Shown: positions 8,562-42,690, numbered from the stretch's first letter. The stretch is DNA of 64,000 bases from Escherichia coli (GCF_003790525.1 NZ_CP033635.1); one strand, 5' to 3'. The notes: a model not told the origin generated them from the sequence alone. Numbers and translations: made by a program.

Positions 8562-10217
8562 ATGGATCGTAGACGATTTATTAAAGGTTCAATGGCTATG
8601 GCCGCCGTGTGCGGTACCAGCGGCATTGCTTCTCTTTTTTCTCAGGCGGCATTCGCGGCAGATTCTGATATTGCCGACGGGCAAACCCAGCGTTTTGACT
8701 TCTCCATTCTACAGTCAATGGCGCACGACTTAGCGCAAACAGCGTGGCGTGGTGCGCCGCGTCCGTTACCTGACACTCTGGCGACAATGACGCCGCAGGC
8801 TTATAACAGTATTCAATACGACGCCGAAAAATCGCTCTGGCATAACGTTGAGAACCGTCAACTGGACGCTCAGTTCTTCCATATGGGAATGGGATTCCGT
8901 CGCCGCGTTCGTATGTTTTCTGTAGATCCCGCAACACATCTGGCGCGTGAAATTCACTTTCGCCCGGAGTTGTTCAAATACAACGATGCGGGTGTTGATA
9001 CCAAACAATTAGAAGGGCAAAGCGATCTCGGTTTTGCCGGTTTTCGCGTGTTTAAAGCCCCCGAACTGGCGCGCCGTGATGTCGTATCATTCCTCGGTGC
9101 GAGTTATTTCCGCGCCGTTGACGACACATATCAATACGGTCTATCGGCTCGCGGCCTGGCGATCGACACTTACACCGACAGTAAAGAAGAGTTCCCCGAC
9201 TTTACCGCCTTCTGGTTTGATACGGTAAAACCGGGGGCAACCACCTTTACCGTTTATGCGTTGCTCGATAGCGCCAGCATTACTGGTGCCTATAAGTTCA
9301 CTATCCATTGCGAGAAAAGTCAGGTGATTATGGATGTGGAAAATCACCTGTATGCGCGCAAAGACATTAAACAGCTGGGCATTGCGCCGATGACCAGTAT
9401 GTTCAGCTGCGGTACTAATGAACGTCGGATGTGCGACACCATTCATCCGCAAATCCATGACTCTGATCGTTTGTCCATGTGGCGGGGCAACGGCGAGTGG
9501 ATTTGTCGTCCGCTGAACAATCCGCAAAAATTGCAGTTCAATGCTTACACCGACAACAACCCGAAAGGGTTTGGTTTATTGCAACTGGATCGTGATTTCT
9601 CCCATTATCAGGACATTATGGGCTGGTATAACAAACGCCCAAGTCTGTGGGTGGAACCGCGTAACAAGTGGGGTAAGGGCACCATCGGCCTGATGGAAAT
9701 CCCAACAACGGGCGAAACGCTGGATAACATTGTCTGCTTCTGGCAGCCAGAAAAAGCTGTAAAAGCGGGTGATGAGTTTGCATTCCAGTATCGTCTGTAC
9801 TGGAGTGCGCAACCGCCTGTTCATTGCCCATTAGCGCGCGTTATGGCGACGCGTACCGGCATGGGTGGTTTCCCGGAAGGTTGGGCTCCAGGTGAACACT
9901 ATCCCGAAAAATGGGCGCGTCGTTTTGCCGTCGATTTCGTTGGTGGTGATCTGAAAGCTGCCGCGCCAAAAGGCATTGAGCCGGTGATTACGCTTTCCAG
10001 TGGGGAAGCGAAGCAAATCGAAATTCTCTATATTGAACCCATTGATGGTTATCGTATTCAGTTTGACTGGTATCCGACTTCGGACTCCACTGATCCGGTC
10101 GATATGCGGATGTATCTGCGTTGTCAGGGCGACGCTATCAGTGAAACATGGCTGTATCAGTATTTCCCGCCAGCGCCCGATAAACGTCAGTATGTTGACG
10201 ACCGCGTGATGAGTTAA
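8562..10217 (+). CDS. opgD: Glucans biosynthesis protein D (periplasmic, Tat signal RRRFIKGS)
   Basis: 551-aa ORF with twin-arginine signal peptide and MdoG/MdoD-family sequence. Confidence 0.93.
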
Positions 10218-10356
10218 TCGTTTTTTCTTCGGCACCTTCTTCGGGAGGTGCCGTCTGGTTAAACACGATCCCGCTCGCATTTTTCCCTAAGTTAAATGAG
10301 TAATCTGATGGTGTGTATTTCAGATACACCTTGTCAGCCACTAACAGGGAGTGCGT

Positions 10357-10581
10357 ATGTTTCCAGAATATCGAGATTTAATATCCCGTCTGAAAAACGA
10401 AAATCCTCGCTTTATGTCCTTGTTCGATAAACACAATAAACTTGATCATGAAATTGCCAGAAAGGAAGGTTCCGACGGTCGAGGGTACAATGCGGAAGTG
10501 GTCCGCATGAAAAAACAAAAGCTACAGTTAAAAGATGAGATGCTCAAAATCCTGCAGCAGGAGAGCGTCAAAGAGGTGTAA
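10357..10581 (+). CDS. ydcH: Small protein YdcH (DUF465); ORF track starts 6 nt earlier at GTG 10351
   Basis: MFPEYRDLISRLKNENPRFMSLFDKHNKLDHEIARKEG...; AGGGA RBS 8 nt upstream of ATG 10357. Confidence 0.85.
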   Translation: MFPEYRDLISRLKNENPRFMSLFDKHNKLDHEIARKEGSDGRGYNAEVVRMKKQKLQLKDEMLKILQQESVKEV

Positions 10582-10589
10582 ACTTTCCT

Positions 10590-10615
10590 AAGCCGCCAGC
10601 TAGGCGGCTTTTTTA
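10590..10615 (+). terminator. Rho-independent terminator after ydcH (agccgcc-agct-aggcggct + T5)
   Basis: GC stem followed by a T-run immediately after the ydcH stop. Confidence 0.7.
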
Positions 10616-10643
10616 ACAACTGCATGGAGTGACTGGAGATAAG

Positions 10644-11183
10644 ATGACCGAAACGATAAAAGTAAGTGAATCACTTGAATTACATGCTGTTGCAGAAAGT
10701 CATGTCACACCTCTTTATCAGTTAATCTGTAAAAATAGAACCTGGCTACAGCAGTCGCTAAACTGGCCGCAGTTTGTTCAAAGTGAAGAGGACACGCGAA
10801 AAACGGTGCAGGGCAATGTAATGTTGCATCAACGCGGATATGCCAAAATGTTCATGATTTTCAAAGAAGATGAACTTATCGGCGTTATCTCGTTTAATCG
10901 TATTGAACCACTGAATAAAACCGCTGAAATCGGCTACTGGCTGGACGAATCTCATCAGGGGCAGGGGATCATTTCTCAGGCGCTGCAGGCATTGATTCAT
11001 CATTACGCTCAGTCTGGTGAACTTAGACGCTTCGTGATCAAATGTCGGGTGGACAATCCGCAAAGCAACCAGGTCGCTTTGCGCAATGGTTTTATCCTTG
11101 AAGGTTGCCTGAAACAGGCTGAGTTTCTGAATGATGCCTATGATGATGTGAACTTATACGCGCGTATTATCGATTCACAATAA
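10644..11183 (+). CDS. rimL: Ribosomal-protein-L7/L12 serine N-acetyltransferase
   Basis: 179-aa GNAT acetyltransferase starting [16 protein letters not shown]; GGAG RBS. Confidence 0.9.
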
Positions 11184-12155
11184 CCCTGCCAGCGGCGTTC
11201 GCGTAATGCGCTCCTCGCCGTTAATGACTTTTGGACCACGGACATGAACCGTGTCGCCATCAAAGGCTTCAACGACGGCGTGGTCGGTTAACTCCACATG
11301 GTTTTCAATTATCACCGCACCTGTAATACGGCTCTCACCTTGTATGACAACGTGCTCGTCGAGCAGAATCGGTCCGCCACGTACCACGGCATTTCCGCCA
11401 ATCAAGACATGATGTTTTAACACACAATTACCTTCCACAATGGCATATTCCGCCACCTGCGAACTGTAATGAATCGTCGGAATGGCATCTTCTTCTATGC
11501 CAGCTTTCACCTGCGCGTGACCGTAGACTTTAGCACAATCGCATAGCCAGACGTTGTTCTCTTCATTACCCTCAATACTGGCAAAATCAAAAACTTCGGC
11601 GCGATGTTCAATAAAAGCATACCGGACGACGGCATCGCCATAAATTTGTGCCTGGTGGACAATCCGCGAGGCGCTAACCCTCGCGCGATCATAAATTTGT
11701 AGCAGGAGTTGATGGTCGGGCGTTAAGCCTTGTGCGGCGACGATCATAGAATGTTGATCAATTAAGGCGTGACCAAATATTCTACATTGACCGCAAACTA
11801 ATGAGTCACTAATGGTGACACTGTCACTTATATATGCACCCTGGCTGATTTCACTATTATCGATCCAGACATTATCCGTTGCGTAAACCTCTCCCCACAG
11901 CACGCTGGTGCCGGTGATACGCGTATTCCCGGAAATCACCGTTCCGCCGAACGCAATAGCATTCTGGTCGTAAATCCAGCAATTTCCTTCCTGTGCTAAC
12001 ACCGTTTCGCGATCGATCCAGCCGCCAGCGGTTCCTGCTATCACATCGTTAAAATCGCTAATGGCGATAATCTGCCGTAATAACACATTTTTTTTAGTGC
12101 CATCTTCCTGATAACTAAAGGCTCGCTGTTCTTCACTTAGACGATATTTGCGCAT
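11175..12155 (-). CDS. ydcK: Hexapeptide-repeat (left-handed beta-helix) putative acyltransferase YdcK
   Basis: 326-aa ORF with repeated [IVL]G-x-x-x-x hexapeptide pattern; 3' end overlaps rimL by 9 bp. Confidence 0.85.
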
Positions 12156-32359: not shown

Positions 32360-34462
32360 TTACTCAAATCGCCACGCAATATTCATGCCGACACCATAAT
32401 TTCGCCCGGGCGCAGGTTCGTAATATCGACCGTTTGACTCATTGACAATGACAGAACCAACGTATCCTTTATCGAATAAATTATCGACACGACCAAATAA
32501 ATCCACAGTCAAATTGTGGTAATTGTATTTATACCCGGTGAATAAGCCGACGAGAGTATAAGACGGCGCTTTGGCCGTATTTTCATCATCTGCCATAATA
32601 TCGCCCATATATCGCGCTTCCGTGCCTGCATACCAGCCTTCTTCCGGTACATAACCTATCGATGCAAAGCCCATATTACGGGCGATCCCTGGCATCCGGT
32701 TACCGTTACAATCCTGTTCATTGCACACATTGCTGCGATAGGTCGCATCAAGCCAGGTCCAGGACGCTTTTACGCGAAAATCTCCCGCGAAACGTTGATC
32801 CCATGCCAGTTCAGCGCCTTGACGACGGGTCTTTCCGGCATTTTTATATGTGGTACGCCCACCGCTACTGCTATCGACAACAATTTCATCATCGGTGTCG
32901 GTCTGGAACAATGCGAGACTCAGCAGCCCATCACCAATACGCGTTTTACTGCCGATCTCAATTGTATCGTTGGTAGATGGTTTTAAACCAAAGTTCATAC
33001 CGCTTTGCCCATCAGCGCGATAAGACAGTTCATTAATCGTCGGCGTTTCAAAACCACGCCCGGCTGCCAGATAGATATTCCAGGCATCGTTCATTGCATA
33101 TTTTAACGAACCGGCAGGTAGCCATTTGTGATAACTGGCATCACCGCTGTCATCGCCGTTACCCGGAGTAACGTAATGGTCGTTGGAATCAAACCATACG
33201 GAGCTGTAGCGCACGCCAGCATCCAGCGACAGTTTTTCGCTCAGCTGCCACTGTGTCTGTAAATAGGGATCGACATTCCACATCAGATTGCGTTCGTCGC
33301 GACGTAACTCACCTTTTTGCCCGTATTCCGGCACGCCGCTATTCAGGCGGAAGTTATTGTAGCCCTTGCGGTTTTCACTCATGTTTTCGTAGTTCAGGCC
33401 AGTAGTGAACGTGACCGGAACACCCAGCTCGCCATGGTGTGTCCAGCGGCTGTCTATCCCCTGATAATGGCGTTGCAGAGTAATCACGCCGCCCGCATGC
33501 GACGGATTAAGTTGAGGGGCCATCGGGATTGACTGGTACTGGGTCGTTTCTCGCTCTCCGGCATACATCATTACACTCATATCATCTTGCGCGCTCAGGC
33601 TACGTTCATAGCGCAACCCAGCCTGAGTTTGCTTGATGGTTTTTCGCGTGTCGTACTGTTCAGCGCGTGGCGCTTGTTGCGGATTCGCCTTCCATTCTGC
33701 TTCGGTTAGCCCACCTGGGTCATCTGCTTTGATATCCACACTATTGAAAATCAGGCTTAATTTGCTGGCTTCATCAATGCGAACGCCCAGTTTGGCATTG
33801 GCTAAATTTTTCTGTGCGCCACTATGGTCACGATAGCCGTGGGTCGTAAAACGCGTGGTTGAGACGGTGTAATCGACATCGCCAGGCTGTGTGCCGTCGC
33901 CCGTTGCGCCTGTTGCTTTCAGCCCATAGCGCCAGCTGCCAAAACTGCCGTAGTAACTACTGGCTTCAATGGTTGGTGGCTGTTGTCCGGTCTGGGTGAT
34001 GACATTCATTACACCGCCAGACGCGTTGCCATACAGAGCAGAGAAGGGGCCACGCAGCACTTCCACATTTTGCACACTGCTTAAATCGATGTTGGATGTT
34101 TGCCCTTGCCCGTCGGGCATGGTGGCGGGAATACCGTCCACATACAGGCGAATACCGCGAATTCCGTAAGTGGAGCGGGAGCCAAATCCGCGAATCGACA
34201 GCTGTAAATCTTGCGCATAGTTCTGCCGGTTTTGTACCTGCAAACCAGGCACGCCAGTCAGTGATTCAGACAAGTTAATGCGCGGTGTTGCCAGGCGCAT
34301 CTCCTCGCCATCCACCACGCTTACTGCTGCTGGCGTATCCAGTTCTGAAACCACCTGCGGCGCGGCACTGACAATCATGGTCTGTTCATCAGCGGCAAAA
34401 ACAACGGGGGAAAGGACAAGCAGTGCGGGCAAAACGGTCTGTCGGACGGAAAAAATCTTCAT
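32360..34462 (-). CDS. yncD: TonB-dependent outer-membrane receptor
   Basis: 700-aa ORF with signal peptide, TonB box (DEQTMIVSA), plug domain and C-terminal aromatic residue. Confidence 0.9.
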   Translation of the reverse strand: MKIFSVRQTVLPALLVLSPVVFAADEQTMIVSAAPQVVSELDTPAAVSVVDGEEMRLATPRINLSESLTGVPGLQVQNRQNYAQDLQLSIRGFGSRSTYGIRGIRLYVDGIPATMPDGQGQTSNIDLSSVQNVEVLRGPFSALYGNASGGVMNVITQTGQQPPTIEASSYYGSFGSWRYGLKATGATGDGTQPGDVDYTVSTTRFTTHGYRDHSGAQKNLANAKLGVRIDEASKLSLIFNSVDIKADDPGGLTEAEWKANPQQAPRAEQYDTRKTIKQTQAGLRYERSLSAQDDMSVMMYAGERETTQYQSIPMAPQLNPSHAGGVITLQRHYQGIDSRWTHHGELGVPVTFTTGLNYENMSENRKGYNNFRLNSGVPEYGQKGELRRDERNLMWNVDPYLQTQWQLSEKLSLDAGVRYSSVWFDSNDHYVTPGNGDDSGDASYHKWLPAGSLKYAMNDAWNIYLAAGRGFETPTINELSYRADGQSGMNFGLKPSTNDTIEIGSKTRIGDGLLSLALFQTDTDDEIVVDSSSGGRTTYKNAGKTRRQGAELAWDQRFAGDFRVKASWTWLDATYRSNVCNEQDCNGNRMPGIARNMGFASIGYVPEEGWYAGTEARYMGDIMADDENTAKAPSYTLVGLFTGYKYNYHNLTVDLFGRVDNLFDKGYVGSVIVNESNGRYYEPAPGRNYGVGMNIAWRFE

Positions 34463-34703: not shown

Positions 34704-35765
34704 ATGCATTTACGTCATCTGTTTTCATCGCGCCTGCGTGGTTCATTACTGTTAGGTTCATTGCTTGTTGCTTCATCATTCAGTACGCAGGCCGCAGAAG
34801 AAATGCTGCGTAAAGCGGTAGGTAAAGGTGCCTACGAAATGGCTTATAGCCAGCAAGAAAACGCGCTGTGGCTCGCCACTTCGCAAAGCCGCAAACTGGA
34901 TAAAGGCGGCGTGGTTTATCGTCTTGATCCGGTTACTCTGGAAGTGACGCAGGCGATCCATAACGATCTCAAGCCGTTTGGTGCCACCATCAATAACACG
35001 ACTCAGACGTTGTGGTTTGGTAACACTGTAAACAGCGCGGTCACGGCGATAGATGCCAAAACGGGCGAAGTGAAAGGACGTCTGGTGCTTGATGAGCGTA
35101 AACGTACCGAAGAAGTGCGTCCGTTGCAGCCGCGTGAGCTGGTAGCTGATGATGCCACGAACACCGTTTACATCAGTGGTATTGGTAAAGAGAGCGTGAT
35201 TTGGGTCGTTGATGGCGAGAATATCAAACTGAAAACCGCCATCCAGAACACCGGTAAAATGAGTACCGGTTTAGCGCTGGATAGCAAAGGCAAACGTCTT
35301 TACACCACTAACGCTGACGGCGAATTGATTACCATCGACACCGCCGACAATAAAATCCTCAGCCGTAAAAAGCTGCTGGATGACGACAAAGAGCACTTCT
35401 TTATCAACATCAGCCTTGATACCACCAATCAGCGTGCATTTATCACCGATTCTAAAGCGGCAGAAGTGTTAGTGGTTGATACCCGTAATGGCAATATTCT
35501 TGCGAAGGTTGCGGCACCGGAATCACTGGCTGTGCTGTTTAACCCAGCGCGTAATGAAGCCTACGTGACGCATCGTCAGGCAGGTAAAGTCAGTGTGATT
35601 GACGCGAAAAGCTATAAAGTGGTGAAAACGTTCGATACGCCGACTCATCCGAACAGCCTGGCGCTGTCTGCAGATGGCAAAACGCTGTATGTCAGTGTGA
35701 AACAAAAATCCACTAAACAGCAGGAAGCTACCCAGCCGGACGATGTGATTCGTATTGCGCTGTAA
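34704..35765 (+). CDS. yncE: Periplasmic beta-propeller protein YncE
   Basis: 353-aa ORF with signal peptide and repeated beta-propeller blades. Confidence 0.9.
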   Translation: MHLRHLFSSRLRGSLLLGSLLVASSFSTQAAEEMLRKAVGKGAYEMAYSQQENALWLATSQSRKLDKGGVVYRLDPVTLEVTQAIHNDLKPFGATINNTTQTLWFGNTVNSAVTAIDAKTGEVKGRLVLDERKRTEEVRPLQPRELVADDATNTVYISGIGKESVIWVVDGENIKLKTAIQNTGKMSTGLALDSKGKRLYTTNADGELITIDTADNKILSRKKLLDDDKEHFFINISLDTTNQRAFITDSKAAEVLVVDTRNGNILAKVAAPESLAVLFNPARNEAYVTHRQAGKVSVIDAKSYKVVKTFDTPTHPNSLALSADGKTLYVSVKQKSTKQQEATQPDDVIRIAL

Positions 35766-35877: not shown

Positions 35878-37377
35878 TTAACTCGCCGTTTCAGGCTTAA
35901 ACACAATTTCCTGTTGTTCTTCATCTTCCTCGACGACTGGCGCAGTGCTGTGAATTTCAGCAACGCGTTTGCGCACACCAAACCAGCCTATAACCAGCAG
36001 AATACCGATAATCGGTAGCGCCGCGATAGTATAAGTCCCGTTCGGGTAATCGAACGCCATCAGCACCAGAACACTCAGTAAAAACAGTAATGTCAGCCAG
36101 GAAGTGAAGGGCGCGCCAGGCAGTTTAAAACTGACATCCGCTGCTTTGCCTTCTTTAATCGCTTTACGCAGGCGCATCTGGCACACGATGATAAACGCCC
36201 ATGAAGCGATGATTCCCAGCGACGCGAAGTTCAACACAATCTCAAATACGCGCGACGGCACCAGATAGTTGAGGAATACGCCGACGACATACACAACCAG
36301 TGTCGCCAGAATCCCGGCATACGGCACATGCTGACGACTCATTTTCGCCATAAAACTCGGTGCGGAACCGCCCATCGCCATTGAGCGCAGAATGCGTCCG
36401 GTGCAGTACAGACCTGAATTCAGGCTGGAGAGGGCAGCGGTCAGCACCACAATGTTCATAATGCTGCCGATATATGGCACACCCAGTTTAGAGAAAAACG
36501 TCACGAACGGACTTTGCCCCGCCTGATACGCGCTCCACGGCAATAGCATAACCAGCAACACCACGGAGCCGACGTAAAACAGGCCAATACGCCAAATCAC
36601 ACTGTTAATCGCTTTAGGCACCATGGTCTGCGGATCTTTACATTCTCCGGCCGCTGTACCCACCATTTCAATAGAGGCAAAAGCAAACACTACGCCCTGA
36701 ATCAACACCAGCGCAGGCAGCAAACCGTGGGGGAAGAAGCCGCCATTATCGGTAATTAAATGAAAGCCAGTGGTGTTGCCATCCAGCGGCTGACCGCTAC
36801 CGAGGAACACTGTACCCACGACCAAAAAGGTCACGATGGCGAGCACTTTAATAAGCGCAAACCAGAACTCCATCTCCGCAAACCATTTCACACCAATCAT
36901 ATTCATGGTGCCAACGATGGTCAGCGCAGCGAGCGCAAAGACCCACTGCGGCACGCCGCCAAACGCACCCCAGTAATGCATATACAGAGCGACGGCGGTG
37001 ATATCGACAATCCCTGTCATCGCCCAGTTGATGAAGTACATCCAGCCTGCAACGTAAGCGGCTTTCTCTCCTAAAAACTCACGGGCATAAGAGACAAAAC
37101 TGCCACTGGAAGGGCGGTGTAGCACCAGCTCACCCAATGCACGCAGAATAAAAAATGAAAACAGGCCGCAGATTAAATAGACCAGTGCCAGTGCTGGCCC
37201 CGCCATTTGCAGTCGGGCTCCTGCACCTAAAAACAAGCCGGTGCCAATCGCGCCGCCAATGGCGATCATCTGAACCTGGCGATTGCCCATCGCTTTGTGA
37301 TACCCCTCTTCGTGGGCATTAAGCCAGCGGCGTTTCGCGGCGTGCTGATCTGAAGTGTCGGTGTCGTGTTTACTCAT
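35878..37377 (-). CDS. ansP: L-asparagine permease (APC family)
   Basis: ORF 35878..37428; start at MSKHDTDTSDQHAAKRRWLN (499 aa), 12-TM amino-acid permease. Confidence 0.92.
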   Translation of the reverse strand: MSKHDTDTSDQHAAKRRWLNAHEEGYHKAMGNRQVQMIAIGGAIGTGLFLGAGARLQMAGPALALVYLICGLFSFFILRALGELVLHRPSSGSFVSYAREFLGEKAAYVAGWMYFINWAMTGIVDITAVALYMHYWGAFGGVPQWVFALAALTIVGTMNMIGVKWFAEMEFWFALIKVLAIVTFLVVGTVFLGSGQPLDGNTTGFHLITDNGGFFPHGLLPALVLIQGVVFAFASIEMVGTAAGECKDPQTMVPKAINSVIWRIGLFYVGSVVLLVMLLPWSAYQAGQSPFVTFFSKLGVPYIGSIMNIVVLTAALSSLNSGLYCTGRILRSMAMGGSAPSFMAKMSRQHVPYAGILATLVVYVVGVFLNYLVPSRVFEIVLNFASLGIIASWAFIIVCQMRLRKAIKEGKAADVSFKLPGAPFTSWLTLLFLLSVLVLMAFDYPNGTYTIAALPIIGILLVIGWFGVRKRVAEIHSTAPVVEEDEEQQEIVFKPETAS

Positions 37378-37643
37378 TGCTCTCCCTGATTGCTTTAATG
37401 AAAAAGTCATATAAGTTGCCATGAACAATGTTTATTCATCCTGGCGATGATAGTTATCACCATTATTCTTTATGGGTATAAAACTATCGGCGCAGCATCC
37501 TACCCGTTATCGATAAACGATGCAAAACATCCCCTTACAATCCTGAAGGGGAATAATACAACTGACGAAAAAATGACAAATCCTTTTGCTGGTTAACCTG
37601 TGTACTGTCCTACACTTAATCTTTAAAAGATTGTGAGGGGCAT

Positions 37644-38261
37644 ATGATTAAGGTGTATGGCGTACCCGGCTGGGGCTCTACAATCAGTGAGCTGATGCTA
37701 ACACTGGCTGATATTCCTTATCAGTTCGTTGATGTCAGTGGTTTTGACCGCGAGGGAACTTCACGCGAGTTATTGAAAACCCTGAACCCGTTGTGTCAGA
37801 TTCCGACACTGGCGCTGGAAAATGACGAGATTATGACGGAGACAGCGGCGATTGCATTGATGGTTCTCGATCGTCGCCCGGACCTTGCGCCACCGCTTGG
37901 GCGCGTCGAACGTCAGCAGTTTCAACAGTTATTGGTCTGGCTGGTTGCTAATGTCTATCCAACATTCACTTTCGCCGATTACCCTGAGCGTTGGGCTCCT
38001 GACGCACCCGAACAGTTAAAGAATAATGTTATTGAATATCGTAAATCGCTTTATATCTGGCTGAATTCACAATTGACCGCTGAACCGTATGTGTTTGGAG
38101 AGCAACTAACGCTGGTGGACTGTTATCTCTGCACCATGCGCACATGGGGACCGGGACACGAATGGTTTCAGGATAATGCCCCGAACATCAATGCGATTGC
38201 TGATGCTGTATGTCAGATACCAAAGCTAAAAGGGATACTAAAGAGGAATGGAATCATTTAA
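37644..38261 (+). CDS. yncG: Glutathione S-transferase homolog YncG
   Basis: 205-aa ORF with GST N/C-domain pattern. Confidence 0.88.
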   Translation: MIKVYGVPGWGSTISELMLTLADIPYQFVDVSGFDREGTSRELLKTLNPLCQIPTLALENDEIMTETAAIALMVLDRRPDLAPPLGRVERQQFQQLLVWLVANVYPTFTFADYPERWAPDAPEQLKNNVIEYRKSLYIWLNSQLTAEPYVFGEQLTLVDCYLCTMRTWGPGHEWFQDNAPNINAIADAVCQIPKLKGILKRNGII

Positions 38262-38853
38262 TTATTTTTCCCATCGATTTCGCCCACTTTCTTTCGCCCG
38301 GTATAACGCAGCGTCGGCATCTGAAATAATTTGTTCAGCCGTTTTTGCGGGAGCAGAACAGGTAATCCCCTGACTAACCGTAACGAATGCATTAACAGCA
38401 GATGCCTGATGCGGGATAGCTGCCAGTTTAAGTTCTTGCTTCACTCTGGCTGCTACCGTCTCTGCTTCCGGCAATGTTGCATTAAAAAGTATGATGACAA
38501 ACTCTTCGCCACCATAACGGACAACAACATCCTCCGACTGGCGAGTTGAACGCTGTAGAGCGTCGGCAACTTGTATTAGACAACGATCCCCAGCAGGATG
38601 CCCGTAAGTGTCGTTGTAACGTTTAAAAAAATCGACATCCAGCATAATAAGAGCAAATGACCCGCCGTTATCTATCGCGTCGTGTAAGATACTGTTCATT
38701 GCACGTCGGTTTGCTATCCCAGTTAAAGGATCACGATGTGCTAATGCATCAAGGCGATTAATTAACTGGTTGTTATAACTGTTTTGTACCCATGCTTCTT
38801 CAAACCAACGTAACAAAATGAGTCGCCCACCATATAGCGCCAGTGAAAAAATA
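38262..38853 (-). pseudogene. Diguanylate cyclase (GGDEF domain, RYGGEEF active site), C-terminal part separated from its N-terminus by IS1
   Basis: Minus-strand frame ...SLALYGGRLILLRWFEEAW...DPLTGIANRRAM...RYGGEEFVIIL...LYRAKESGRNRWEK*; the apparent TTG start in the ORF track lies inside the IS1 inverted repeat. Confidence 0.8.
38846..38853. repeat. IS1 target-site duplication, left copy (AAAAAATA)
   Basis: Same 8-mer directly flanks the other IS1 end at 39622..39629. Confidence 0.7.
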
Positions 38854-38868
38854 GGTAATGACTCCAAC

Positions 38869-39372
38869 TTATTGATAGTGTTTTATGTTCAGATAATGCC
38901 CGATGACTTTGTCATGCAGCTCCACCGATTTTGAGAACGACAGCGACTTCCGTCCCAGCCGTGCCAGGTGCTGCCTCAGATTCAGGTTATGCCGCTCAAT
39001 TCGCTGCGTATATCGCTTGCTGATTACGTGCAGCTTTCCCTTCAGGCGGGATTCATACAGCGGCCAGCCATCCGTCATCCATATCACCACGTCAAAGGGT
39101 GACAGCAGGCTCATAAGACGCCCCAGCGTCGCCATCGTGCGTTCACCGAATACGTGCGCAACAACCGTCTTCCGGAGCCTGTCATACGCGTAAAACAGCC
39201 AGCGCTGGCGCGATTTAGCCCCGACATAGCCCCACTGTTCGTCCATTTCCGCACAGACGATGACGTCACTGCCCGGCTGTATGCGCGAGGTTACCGACTG
39301 CGGCCTGAGTTTTTTAAGTGACGTAAAATCGTGTTGAGGCCAACGCCCATAATGCGGGCTGTTGCCCGGCAT
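38869..39372 (-). CDS. insB: IS1 InsB (transposase catalytic part, expressed by -1 frameshift as InsAB')
   Basis: 167-aa [28 protein letters not shown]... recognised as IS1 InsB. Confidence 0.9.
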
Positions 39373-39566
39373 CCAACGCCATTCATGGCCATATCAATGA
39401 TTTTCTGGTGCGTACCGGGTTGAGAAGCGGTGTAAGTGAACTGCAGTTGCCATGTTTTACGGCAGTGAGAGCAGAGATAGCGCTGATGTCCGGCGGTGCT
39501 TTTGCCGTTACGCACCACCCCGTCAGTAGCTGAACAGGAGGGACAGCTGATAGAAACAGAAGCCAC
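39291..39566 (-). CDS. insA: IS1 InsA (zinc-finger repressor / transposase N-terminal part)
   Basis: 91-aa [46 protein letters not shown]... Confidence 0.9.
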
Positions 39567-39621
39567 TGGAGCACCTCAAAAACACCATCATATACTAAAT
39601 CAGTAAGTTGGCAGCATCACC

Positions 39622-40135
39622 AAAAAATACACCATACAACAGCAAAATGAATATTGATCTGTTGATTAAGCATAAGACTCGCTATTGGAGTGGTGAACCA
39701 TAAGGGAATGACAAATGCGAGCAATGATGGGGTATGGAAATAAAGTGCGATAACGCCACTAAGCATTAATAATACACATAGTGGATAAGCAAACTGCAGC
39801 GTCCAGTACGCAATAAAGTGATAACTACACCATGACCATAGCAGGCTCAGGGCAACTAATAGCACCTGGATAGGTAATGTTTTTTGCCGAGGGATGAGTA
39901 GTAAACCACTGCAAATCAGCAGAATACCCGTTGCAGATATATCAATAGAATGTATAAGGCTTTTTTCATTTAACCAGGGTGGAGTAAGGTCATTAAACAG
40001 AACACGGCGCAGCAAAATTATCAATGCAAAACTGACATTGATAAAAGCAAACCATGGCAAACTAATCGTCATGCCGCGAATAACCATATCGCGGCGGGTT
40101 TTCCATGAGTGATGCGTTTTTCTTCGTTCAGCCAT
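39622..40135 (-). pseudogene. Diguanylate cyclase N-terminal membrane-sensor portion (about 5 TM helices), truncated by IS1
   Basis: Frame MAERRKTHHSW...QINIHFAVVWCIF runs into the IS1 inverted repeat and stops there; in phase with 38262..38853 once IS1 and one 8-bp repeat are removed (about 366 aa). Confidence 0.75.
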
Positions 40136-40142
40136 TTTTTAA

Positions 40143-40167
40143 CCAAAAAAGGGCAGGATACCTGCCC
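40143..40167 (-). terminator. Rho-independent terminator of the alkylsulfatase gene (gggcagg-ata-cctgccc + T6 on minus strand)
   Basis: Perfect 7-bp stem followed by TTTTTT on the coding strand, 15 bp after the stop. Confidence 0.7.
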
Positions 40168-40181
40168 GGTATGCAGTAAAT

Positions 40182-42158
40182 TTATGGTGTCACTATATTG
40201 AACCAAAATTCAAAATTATCCATATAACCTAACAGCTCGTTGAGTTTTTCCGCATTGCCAGTAATTTTGACATCTTCTTTGGCCGTGGCTTCTTTCAGCG
40301 TCTCTTCTTTCAGTACAATTTTGTTCAATACATCACGAGACAGAGTGATAGTGGCATCAGCATCCGAAGCCTCTACACCAGCGGTATGATTGAGAACACC
40401 ATTTTCAAGCTCCACTTTATAGGTGCCGCCATCTTCACCAAAATCGAAATTCAACACGGTTTTGGCATCTGCCGCTTTCTCACCATTAATATGGACGGCA
40501 AGATAATCAAAGAACATCTCCGGCGTCATCGCACGCACGGTGTCTGGGCTGGCAGTATTTGGTGTTGGTAATTTTTGTACGCCATTACGCAATTCCTGTG
40601 CGCCAGTGAGATAGAAATTACGCCACGGCCCAGATTCAGCCTGATAGCCTAACTGCTCAAGCGCATCAGCTTCCAGATTTCTCGCTGCCTGGTTGTTTGG
40701 ATCGGTAAACACCACCTTACTAACAACTTGGGCAACCCAGCGGAAATTACCCTGGTCATAATCCTGTTTGGCTTTCTGTAAAATGGCATCAGCACCGCCC
40801 ATATACTCGACGAATTTTTTTGCGCCTTCTTCTGGCGGCAGTTCATCAAGCGTCGCGGGGTTACCATCAAACCAGCCGAGATAAAGCACGTAAGTTGCTT
40901 TCACGTCATGACTTACCGAACCGTAATAGCCGCGATTCGCCCAGGTATTAGCCAGTGAAGAGGGCAGTTTAAAGTTTGCGGCAATTTCATCACGGGTCAT
41001 CCCTTGATTTGCCATACGCAGAGTTTGATCATTGATGTAACGATACAAATCACGCTGGCTTTTAAGCAGTTTGACCACGTTATCGTTGCCCCAGGTTGGC
41101 CAGTGATGTTGAGCGAGAATAATCTCGGCTTTATCTCCCCATAAATTGAGAGCTTCGTTAATATATTTTGACCACGGCAGCGGTTGGCGAATTTTAGCCC
41201 CACGCAGCGAATAGGTGTTATGAAGGGTGTGCGTGACATCTTCAGCGGTTTCGATCAGTTTCTTTTCTTCAATAAACCACAGCATTTCAGAAGGCGCTTC
41301 AGAGCCTGGCGCCATCAAGAAATCATAGGTCAACCCGTCAATAGTTTCTTTTTGTCCGGTTTTGGTGATGTAGTTAGTAGGAGCAATCAACGTGACCGTT
41401 CCTGCTGAAGTGGTTGTTCCCAGTCCCGCGCCAACCTGGCCTTTAACATCAGGTTTCAATAAGTTGCCATACATATAACTGGCTCGTCGGCTCATCACAT
41501 TGCCAGCCATAATATTTTCGGAAACGGCTTCCTCCAAAAATCCGGCTGGCGCGTAGATTTTAACTTTGCCTGATTTAACGTCAGCTTCATCAATTACGCC
41601 GCGAACACCACCGTAGTGATCGACATGACTGTGTGTGTAGATAACCGCTACTACCGGTTTTTTGTCGCGATTTTTGTAATAGAGATCCATACCCACTTTG
41701 GCTGTTTCTGCTGAAACAAGGGGATCAACGATGGTAATACCCTCTTTGCCTTCAATGATGGTCATATTTGATAGATCGAGATTGCGAATCTGATAGACAC
41801 CTTCAGTTACTTCGAATAACCCGCTGATATTTATCAGTTGCGCCTGACGCCATAAACTTGGATTCACCGTATCAGGGGCTTTATCACCTTCTTTAATAAA
41901 AGCGTATTGTTGTGGATCCCAGATAACATTTCCTTTTTCGCCCTTAATCACGTCTTGAGGGATAGGGGCAACAAAACCTTTATGGGCATCAGTAAAGTCA
42001 GTGTTATCAGAAAACGGCAACTGGTTGTAGAGTAAATTGTTTGCTTGTTGCGTGGCTGCGGTGGCGTCTTTAGGGGCTTCCGCCGCGAGGAGTGGCAAAG
42101 AACTGGTGGTGAATAATCCCGTTATTAGCAGACTTTTAACAATATGATTAAGCTGCAT
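40182..42158 (-). CDS. Secreted metallo-beta-lactamase-fold alkyl/aryl-sulfatase (SdsA1/YjcS family)
   Basis: 658-aa ORF with signal peptide (LPLLAAEAP), MBL zinc motif YTHSHVDHYGG, size and layout typical of SdsA1-like alkylsulfatases. Confidence 0.8.
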   Translation of the reverse strand: MQLNHIVKSLLITGLFTTSSLPLLAAEAPKDATAATQQANNLLYNQLPFSDNTDFTDAHKGFVAPIPQDVIKGEKGNVIWDPQQYAFIKEGDKAPDTVNPSLWRQAQLINISGLFEVTEGVYQIRNLDLSNMTIIEGKEGITIVDPLVSAETAKVGMDLYYKNRDKKPVVAVIYTHSHVDHYGGVRGVIDEADVKSGKVKIYAPAGFLEEAVSENIMAGNVMSRRASYMYGNLLKPDVKGQVGAGLGTTTSAGTVTLIAPTNYITKTGQKETIDGLTYDFLMAPGSEAPSEMLWFIEEKKLIETAEDVTHTLHNTYSLRGAKIRQPLPWSKYINEALNLWGDKAEIILAQHHWPTWGNDNVVKLLKSQRDLYRYINDQTLRMANQGMTRDEIAANFKLPSSLANTWANRGYYGSVSHDVKATYVLYLGWFDGNPATLDELPPEEGAKKFVEYMGGADAILQKAKQDYDQGNFRWVAQVVSKVVFTDPNNQAARNLEADALEQLGYQAESGPWRNFYLTGAQELRNGVQKLPTPNTASPDTVRAMTPEMFFDYLAVHINGEKAADAKTVLNFDFGEDGGTYKVELENGVLNHTAGVEASDADATITLSRDVLNKIVLKEETLKEATAKEDVKITGNAEKLNELLGYMDNFEFWFNIVTP

Positions 42159-42462
42159 CTTAAGCGTCTCCAGAATGGACTTTTATTGGGGGTAATTACG
42201 GATGAAAATTTTTGTGAGGGCAAGAATAACTATAATGGGCGTTAATAAATTGGCAAGCCGGGAACTTGATGTTTTCTTAATGGCATGTTGGCGAAGAATA
42301 TATTCTGCAAGTTGACGTTTTTGTTGGCGCTTTATTTAAAAGGGTGTAGTACAAATCTGTACAAATTCAAGTAGGCATTATTGCCGTAAAAAAGCATCAC
42401 CGGACACATAACATTCACAACGTGTGTTAATTTTACTGACATCTTTCAAAAGGAGCACAATC

Positions 42463-42690
42463 ATGCCGCACATAGACATTAAATGTTTTCCACGTGAACT
42501 GGACGAACAACAAAAAGCAGCACTTGCTGCAGATATTACCGACGTTATTATTCGCCATCTGAACAGTAAAGACAGTTCGATAAGCATTGCTCTACAGCAG
42601 ATTCAACCAGAATCATGGCAAGCTATCTGGGACACCGAAATTGCGCCCCAAATGGAGACGCTGATAAAGAAACCTGGTTACAGCATGTAA
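42463..42690 (+). CDS. pptA: Tautomerase PptA (4-oxalocrotonate tautomerase family)
   Basis: Internal start [33 protein letters not shown] of ORF 42424..42690; catalytic Pro2; AAGGAG RBS. Confidence 0.88.

Follow-up and report, generated by a model that had tools for sequence, protein, structure and literature searches.

Type III alkylsulfatases, which have the metallo-beta-lactamase (MBL) fold, form a family that is known both structurally and biochemically: SdsA, YjcS, SdsAP and SdsA1 act on sodium dodecyl sulfate (SDS) (PMC6107682). In SdsAP, a type III primary alkylsulfatase of Pseudomonas sp. S9 (Protein Data Bank (PDB) entry 4NUR), the zinc ligands are His192, His194, Asp196, His197, Glu303, Glu322 and His367, and SDS is no longer hydrolyzed when Tyr246 or Gly263 is mutated (PMC5426288). 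Escherichia coli K-12 encodes a member of this family, the 'linear primary-alkylsulfatase' YjcS (4PDX), at the mdtN-alsK locus. Extra diguanylate cyclases have also been catalogued in the E. coli pangenome; strain-specific ones such as DgcX combine a membrane sensor with a GGDEF domain and are found in a subset of E. coli only. Here we analyze a 64,000-nucleotide (nt) stretch of E. coli DNA (GCF_003790525.1, NZ_CP033635.1; 'the window', from whose first letter all positions are counted) in which two genes of these kinds lie side by side between yncG and pptA: an intact alkylsulfatase gene and a diguanylate cyclase gene interrupted by the insertion sequence (IS) IS1. The segment studied spans 37644-42462.

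In K-12 MG1655, the space between yncG and pptA holds yncH, rhsE', ydcD, yncO, yncI and ydcC. A sequence-only reading of the window had placed yncH, rhsE and H-repeat genes there, in agreement with the MG1655 annotation, and had taken the sulfatase-cyclase pair for a strain-variable islet standing where K-12 has the RhsE element. We would reverse this direction: very probably, the window retains the ancestral arrangement yncG> <cyclase <alkylsulfatase pptA> rather than an acquired islet, and most E. coli, including K-12, have lost the pair.

Ancestry of the yncG-pptA interval

Relatives of the sulfatase were collected by a scan of one genome per species, from which we retained the best 80 of 349, and their neighboring genes were located by tblastn. 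In Escherichia whittamii and in a metagenome-assembled genome, the gene order is narV-yddE-nhoA-yddH-pptA-sulfatase-cyclase. An Escherichia lineage with about 9% divergent DNA, here L012, displays the full pqqU-yncE-ansP-yncG-cyclase-sulfatase-pptA-yddH-nhoA synteny, and metagenomic contigs whose cyclases are 76-80% identical to that of the window show either yddH-pptA-sulfatase-cyclase or sulfatase-cyclase. Six Citrobacter genomes have the order yddH-sulfatase-pptA(-yncG), without the cyclase; at the DNA level, their sulfatase is 77% identical to that of the window, versus 72-74% for yncG, pptA and yddH. The Citrobacter sulfatase has thus diverged much like the flanking core genes, which is the pattern expected for vertical descent. 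Finally, one relative, whose cyclase is 63% identical, shows the arrangement yddH-cyclase-yncG, with neither sulfatase nor pptA. The simplest account of these arrangements is that both genes would have been present at the locus before Escherichia diverged and would then have been lost piecemeal.

The distribution of the pair was assessed in 5426 complete E. coli genomes. Full-length sulfatase genes are found in 439 of them and cyclase genes in 436 (about 8%), so that the interval is strain-variable, as had been proposed; another class of 88 genomes retains only the first 70 base pairs (bp) of the sulfatase gene (42089-42158). The direct junction between yncG and the cyclase seen in the window is present in only 86 genomes. 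In the remaining carriers, about 350, homology to the window ends at 38270, 8 bp inside the 3' end of the cyclase gene. Besides the pair, strains APEC O2-211 and M21170, which share this end point, contain genes for VgrG and an Rhs core protein as well as an ISAs1 fragment, all on the left side of 38270. Since most carriers hold the pair and the Rhs element together, the two are not alternatives: the RhsE/H-repeat (ISAs1) DNA of K-12 occupies the same yncG-pptA interval, yet often sits beside the sulfatase-cyclase pair in other strains.

Genomes without the pair bear what look like the scars of its removal. In K-12, the match to the window breaks off at 38259 and starts again at 42374, some 10 bp beyond the coding sequence of ydcC, an ISAs1 copy; this copy ends exactly at the point where the presumed ancestral sequence is cut, 89 bp ahead of pptA. 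In strain WB61, the match starts again at 42089, likewise some 10 bp past the coding sequence of an ISAs1 copy, and the 120 bp to the left of the K-12 and WB61 breakpoints are the same ISAs1 end. A probe covering window positions 42059-42690 revealed further end-point classes at 42230, 42410 and 42413, some of which adjoin annotated ISAs1 copies. The end points observed in E. coli fall in the sulfatase-pptA intergenic region or just inside the 5' end of the sulfatase gene. Multiple truncations nested in this way and tied to a single IS end bear the signature of IS-mediated adjacent deletion, not that of insertion of the pair. For pptA and the DNA upstream of it, megablast finds no match in about 1300 of the 5426 genomes, which implies that a larger deletion or replacement of this neighborhood must exist in some lineages.

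We may thus hypothesize the following course of events. An Rhs/VgrG element ending in a copy of ISAs1 (the H-repeat) would have come to adjoin the cyclase gene, and deletions starting from the ISAs1 end would then have taken out cyclase and sulfatase to differing extents. In the window genome, the Rhs element is absent from the locus and the sulfatase gene is intact.

The earlier proposal, a horizontally acquired, strain-specific islet at the site of the K-12 RhsE element, draws on observations that also weigh against our own reading. Without IS1, the segment has a GC content of 44.0%, against 50.2% in the flanking genes, and its GC content at third codon positions (GC3) is 0.43 in the sulfatase and 0.37 in the cyclase gene, versus 0.55-0.60 in nhoA and ansP; the AT-richness that had been noted is therefore real, and it is often a mark of foreign DNA. 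The pair occurs in only about 8% of complete genomes, and K-12 has other DNA in the interval. We note that pptA and the intergenic region upstream of it are as AT-rich as the gene pair itself. Differing base composition is one mark of a genomic island; two other marks are not found here, namely genes for mobility or a dedicated attachment site, and absence from the ancestral locus in sister lineages. No integrase, tRNA or boundary repeat appears among the open reading frames (ORFs) and Pfam matches of 37644-42462, where the only mobile DNA is an IS1 private to this genome, and the same gene order recurs in other Escherichia lineages and the same neighborhood in Citrobacter. To this are added the carriers, a majority, that hold the pair plus the Rhs element, and the pair-less genomes with sulfatase remnants and several truncation points flush with ISAs1. 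With this evidence, replacement of RhsE by an islet no longer fits the locus, and acquisition of the pair by horizontal transfer appears quite improbable. The sequence-only reading had itself named what would speak against an islet, namely an ancestral arrangement of ubiquitous core genes: the arrangement does appear to be ancestral, but the genes are far from ubiquitous.

Other points tell against an ancestral pair. Some Escherichia representatives in GTDB are not among the best 80 of 349 loci, and presence of the pair varies within the genus. The Citrobacter sulfatase lies on the other side of pptA and its cyclase partner is missing, so that the ancestral gene order is only partly settled; the order in which the Rhs element inserted and the deletions occurred, as proposed above, is argued from parsimony and not from a tree. 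On balance, we still consider it very probable that the pair is ancestral and that the K-12 state is derived.

Two side observations concern the history of the pair within E. coli. The cyclase genes of SMS-3-5-type and Rhs-bearing loci are at least 99.4% identical, while the adjoining sulfatase genes are only about 97.8% identical, and this uneven divergence is a hint of recombination within the pair. The pair was also found on one record labelled as a plasmid.

The alkylsulfatase and the disrupted cyclase

The sulfatase gene (40182-42158, minus strand) is intact and encodes a type III alkylsulfatase of 658 amino acids (aa), predicted to be periplasmic and identical to RefSeq WP_001176575.1, which is annotated as alkyl/aryl-sulfatase. 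Its Pfam matches are Lactamase_B (3.7e-19), Alkyl_sulf_dimr (2.2e-62), Alkyl_sulf_C (1.4e-44) and SCP2 (1.8e-06), and its best PDB matches are 7TL5, 4NUR (SdsAP), 4PDX (YjcS), Pisa1 and SdsA1. The combination of MBL, dimerization and SCP2-like domains is that of SdsAP and of the related SdsA1 (2CFU) and Pisa1 (2YHE). The window protein aligns with SdsAP without gaps over 633 residues, at 69% identity and with an offset of 16 residues. In this alignment all SdsAP zinc ligands are identical (H176, H178, D180, H181, E287, E306 and H351), including the two glutamates peculiar to alkylsulfatases, and Tyr246 and Gly263 of SdsAP correspond to identical residues, Y230 and G247. The MBL motif HxHxDH appears as HSHVDH at residues 176-181. 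Like SdsAP, the window protein has an N-terminal signal peptide: its N terminus is signal-like, and its alignment with mature SdsAP begins at residue 26, directly after LPLLA, which fits cleavage of a Sec signal peptide. Differences from SdsAP are the enterobacterial host and the lack of an SdsB-type LysR regulator gene adjoining the sulfatase.

Two other enzymes deserve comparison. YjcS belongs to the same family and shares architecture and HxHxDH motif, but it is encoded elsewhere and is only 49% identical, which makes the window sulfatase a distinct paralog. The closest solved structure, 7TL5 (79% identity over 630 residues), is deposited as a 'Lactamase_B domain-containing protein', in an entry that states no function. 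There is no NCBIfam equivalog for either the sulfatase or the cyclase. As the sequence hallmarks of SDS-type enzymes are all present, the prediction of a periplasmic primary alkylsulfatase of the SDS type is well founded. The protein would be exported via its Sec-type signal peptide and, by homology, its two-zinc center would hydrolyze SDS-type primary alkyl sulfate esters in the periplasm, releasing alcohol and sulfate. Such an activity may serve sulfur scavenging or detergent removal.

The sulfatase and pptA genes diverge from an intergenic region (42159-42462; 37% GC) that contains a candidate sigma-70-like promoter for the sulfatase, TTGCCA-16-TATAGT (42229-42256, minus strand), which is a consensus match only, at 10 of 12 positions. 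Downstream, between the sulfatase stop and the cyclase start, a terminator scan detected an intrinsic-terminator-like hairpin with a T-tract (40145-40167, minus strand): the stem-loop GGGCAGG-TAT-CCTGCCC (40151-40167), followed by T6, has a fold energy of -13.5 kcal/mol.

Sulfatase genes in other strains show further changes. In M21170, an independent IS1 (NZ_CP133919.1, 9109-9876) lies in sulfatase codons 2-5, and a 9-bp overlap at window positions 42145-42153 suggests a 9-bp target duplication. In lineage L012 (NZ_JAATUR010000023.1, 10001-11973), the sulfatase match measures 1973 nt instead of 1974 and is in frame only from about residue 60; this copy is probably a frameshifted pseudogene.

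The cyclase gene is split by a 768-bp IS1 (38854-39621, minus strand). This element has terminal inverted repeats, with ends GGTAATGACTCCAACTTATTGAT and ATCAGTAAGTTGGCAGCATCACC, and the genes insA (39291-39566) and insB (38869-39372), which are supported by Pfam matches to Zn_ribbon_InsA, HTH_Tnp_IS1 and DDE_Tnp_IS1. It is flanked by two copies of an 8-bp target duplication, AAAAAATA, at 38846-38853 and 39622-39629, where 8-9 bp are expected for IS1. Removing IS1 together with one copy of AAAAAATA yields a sequence of 4271 bp that is found without any change in E. coli SMS-3-5, where it extends from the start of yncG to the end of pptA; removing 7, 9 or 10 bp with the element fails to restore this match. 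The cyclase/IS1 junction, sought with a 300-bp probe at a coverage of at least 80%, is found in none of the 5426 complete genomes, so that the insertion is private and recent. An IS1A copy of strain M21170 shares 99.5% identity with the element. In M21170 and CUVET16-394, IS1 is also present close to the locus; these copies were considered as possible instances of the same insertion and rejected, because they occupy other positions. In strain 23CRST013 (NZ_AP045773.1), the GGDEF gene is split by ISVsa5; together with the IS1 in the M21170 sulfatase, this indicates that the pair has been repeatedly struck by insertion sequences.

The insertion point follows codon 171 of the 365-codon cyclase gene, inside the last hydrophobic segment of the MASE5 domain, and splits the sensor from the GGDEF domain. 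The 5' fragment (39622-40135, minus strand) comprises codons 1-171 and the MASE5 membrane domain (Pfam, 7.5e-29), and its ORF runs only 5 nt into IS1, the cyclase frame thus being interrupted in this genome. The 3' fragment (38262-38853, minus strand) encodes the end of the last transmembrane helix and a GGDEF domain with the motif GGEEF (Pfam, 2.7e-49). The cyclase has been recently inactivated by IS1 in the window genome. A function could survive if read-out transcription from IS1 were to yield a truncated GGDEF protein from a TTG at 38867: a 201-aa ORF starting inside the end of IS1 holds the whole GGDEF domain, and IS1 with its insAB genes is co-oriented with the cyclase gene. However, this ORF has no recognizable ribosome-binding site, and its product would lack the membrane domain, which probably serves dimerization and signal input. 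We regard such a residual function as very unlikely.

Once reconstructed, the cyclase has a MASE5-GGDEF architecture (PF17178 and PF00990) that is common among Enterobacterales homologs, and it matches exactly the SMS-3-5 protein WP_000236738.1, a GGDEF protein in RefSeq. PF17178 matches both fragments, and a Kyte-Doolittle scan detects hydrophobic segments in the MASE5 part. RefSeq places the start at an ATG at 40087; we favor the upstream ATG at 40135, likely to be the true start, because the additional N-terminal codons remain coding, and conserved, in other genera. The catalytic motif GGEEF is at residue 283. An RxxD I-site five residues upstream of GG(D/E)EF is typical of product-inhibited cyclases, although it is not required for membership in the family. 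Here this position reads QSED, with an arginine one residue out of register. The match to the NCBIfam SiaD model is at the domain level only and below cut-off.

We also compared the protein with the extra cyclases already named in E. coli. Identity with DgcX was rejected, as DgcX is a prophage-linked MASE4-GGDEF protein with an RxxD I-site (PMC4287979, PMC10459773). The window cyclase has MASE5 instead of MASE4, QSED instead of RxxD, and a core-genome locus instead of a prophage. A second membrane-associated extra cyclase was reportedly named DgcY by Povolotsky and Hengge in 2016 (Journal of Bacteriology, volume 198, page 111). We suspect that the window cyclase may be DgcY. The name 'DgcY' is not attached to its protein cluster in databases, and full-text searches for MASE5 or DgcY returned only tables on Enterobacter and Pantoea and unrelated papers.

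The ORF listing and Pfam scans place these genes in the order pqqU/yncD, yncE, ansP, yncG, GGDEF fragment, IS1, MASE5 fragment, alkylsulfatase, pptA, yddH, nhoA and narV. On the left are pqqU/yncD (32360-34462, minus strand), yncE (34704-35765, plus strand), ansP (35878-37428, minus strand) and yncG (37644-38261, plus strand), the left core flank, which encodes a glutathione S-transferase family protein with Pfam GST_N domains, 92% identical in amino acid sequence to K-12 YncG. The right core flank is the tautomerase gene pptA (42463-42690, plus strand), identified by Pfam (Tautomerase) and by the RefSeq annotation of SMS-3-5 and K-12. The stop codons of the convergent yncG and cyclase genes are contiguous (TAATTA, 38259-38264), with no intergenic space at all, and hence no terminator could fit after either of them; in lineage L012, the two genes meet just as tightly.

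Much of the sequence-only reading survives this closer look: its gene content and order, the disruption of the cyclase by IS1, which is confirmed by the 8-bp duplication and the exact restoration of the SMS-3-5 sequence, and the 658-aa MBL-fold alkylsulfatase with signal peptide and zinc motif, which is borne out by the Pfam domains and by HSHVDH. So does its view of a second alkylsulfatase besides yjcS, since the comparison with SdsA1 and YjcS that it had suggested finds both among the PDB matches and separates the window enzyme from YjcS as a paralog. Its statement that each gene has a terminator of its own holds for the sulfatase, with its hairpin and T-tract, and fails for the cyclase, for which none was recognized at the scan threshold.

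Sulfatase-cyclase adjacency in other Enterobacteriaceae

Adjacent sulfatase and MASE5-GGDEF cyclase genes are found in four contexts: the Escherichia yncG-pptA interval, a tynA-feaB group, Atlantibacter and Salmonella. In the tynA-feaB group (Enterobacter, Lelliottia, Leclercia and Pseudenterobacter; seven loci), the pair lies between tynA, encoding a copper amine oxidase, and feaB/feaR. There and in Atlantibacter, the cyclase follows the sulfatase on the same strand after a gap of about 100-130 bp. At one further locus, a ParE-type toxin-antitoxin pair takes the position of the sulfatase, the cyclase being kept. In Salmonella enterica (contigs L083/L084, 2736-6128), the sulfatase is 85% identical and has a MASE5-GGDEF gene as its divergent neighbor; the two lie between a gene pair encoding Usp and a small multidrug resistance (MDR) protein and ttcA-dbpA-like genes. 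Across these genera, the cyclase is only about 50% identical, compared to 85-91% for the sulfatase. This recurrent adjacency may be a new observation. A literature search for work connecting the sulfatase, the cyclase and pptA of E. coli brought up nothing of relevance. As a side observation, two sulfatase paralogs lie within 1-8 kb of one another in Raoultella, Kluyvera, Citrobacter and another enterobacterium; relative to the window sulfatase, one has an identity of about 85% and the other of about 80%.

Adjacency in several contexts suggests coupled expression and function, and we considered that sulfatase and cyclase may form one functional module, in which the cyclase would be transcribed by read-through from the sulfatase promoter and, as a membrane sensor, would respond to alkyl-sulfate detergents or the alcohols released from them, raising cyclic di-GMP (c-di-GMP). 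Besides the four contexts, this model is favored by the strong conservation of the sulfatase across genera in which the cyclase has diverged to about 50%, and by the organization of the intergenic region. In other genera too, a hairpin occupies this position behind the sulfatase stop codon, with a stem that differs in sequence. In Escherichia, the cyclase ATG at 40135 lies only about 9 nt past the T-tract, too close for the cyclase to have its own promoter there; at the scan threshold, no promoter was detected in the stretch from the terminator of the sulfatase to the cyclase ATG. There is a precedent in logic, by analogy only, in Pseudomonas aeruginosa, where SDS induces c-di-GMP-dependent aggregation via SiaA/D (PMC4768041).

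On the other hand, the linkage is partial: a cyclase gene lies downstream in only 10 of 77 sulfatase loci drawn from the best 80 of 349, and of eight cyclase homologs sampled, four have a sulfatase nearby and four do not. A terminator between the two genes argues for separate units, and because the Salmonella genes are divergent, co-transcription cannot be general. Simple inheritance is a sufficient alternative explanation for the adjacency. Weighing both sides, we consider a single functional module rather unlikely. It would be compatible with the ancestry of the pair proposed above and, in the window genome, it would have been broken by IS1. Somewhat less likely still is the more specific version, in which a conserved two-gene detergent-response module of Enterobacteriaceae would tie cyclase expression to the sulfatase promoter by way of a leaky terminator, MASE5 would sense alkyl sulfates or their alcohol products in the membrane, and c-di-GMP would drive aggregation. 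No signal for MASE5 was found in the literature searched; if such a module were real, it would give this domain a first candidate signal and would constitute an enterobacterial counterpart, in logic, to SiaA/D.

Implications for E. coli and for the MASE5 family

The finding is real but ordinary, in that both genes are already annotated with identical RefSeq sequences and belong to well-characterized families. What changes is the direction of evolution. The pair would be ancestral, and K-12 would represent a derived state, with the pair deleted at an Rhs/ISAs1 hot spot; at the window locus, the only recent event is the inactivation of the cyclase by IS1. About 8% of E. coli, including SMS-3-5-like, poultry and extraintestinal pathogenic E. 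coli (ExPEC) isolates, carry a second predicted periplasmic alkylsulfatase, which could matter for survival in detergent-rich settings or for sulfur scavenging. The recurrent adjacency of the sulfatase with a MASE5 cyclase offers a modest, testable lead to the signal perceived by MASE5.

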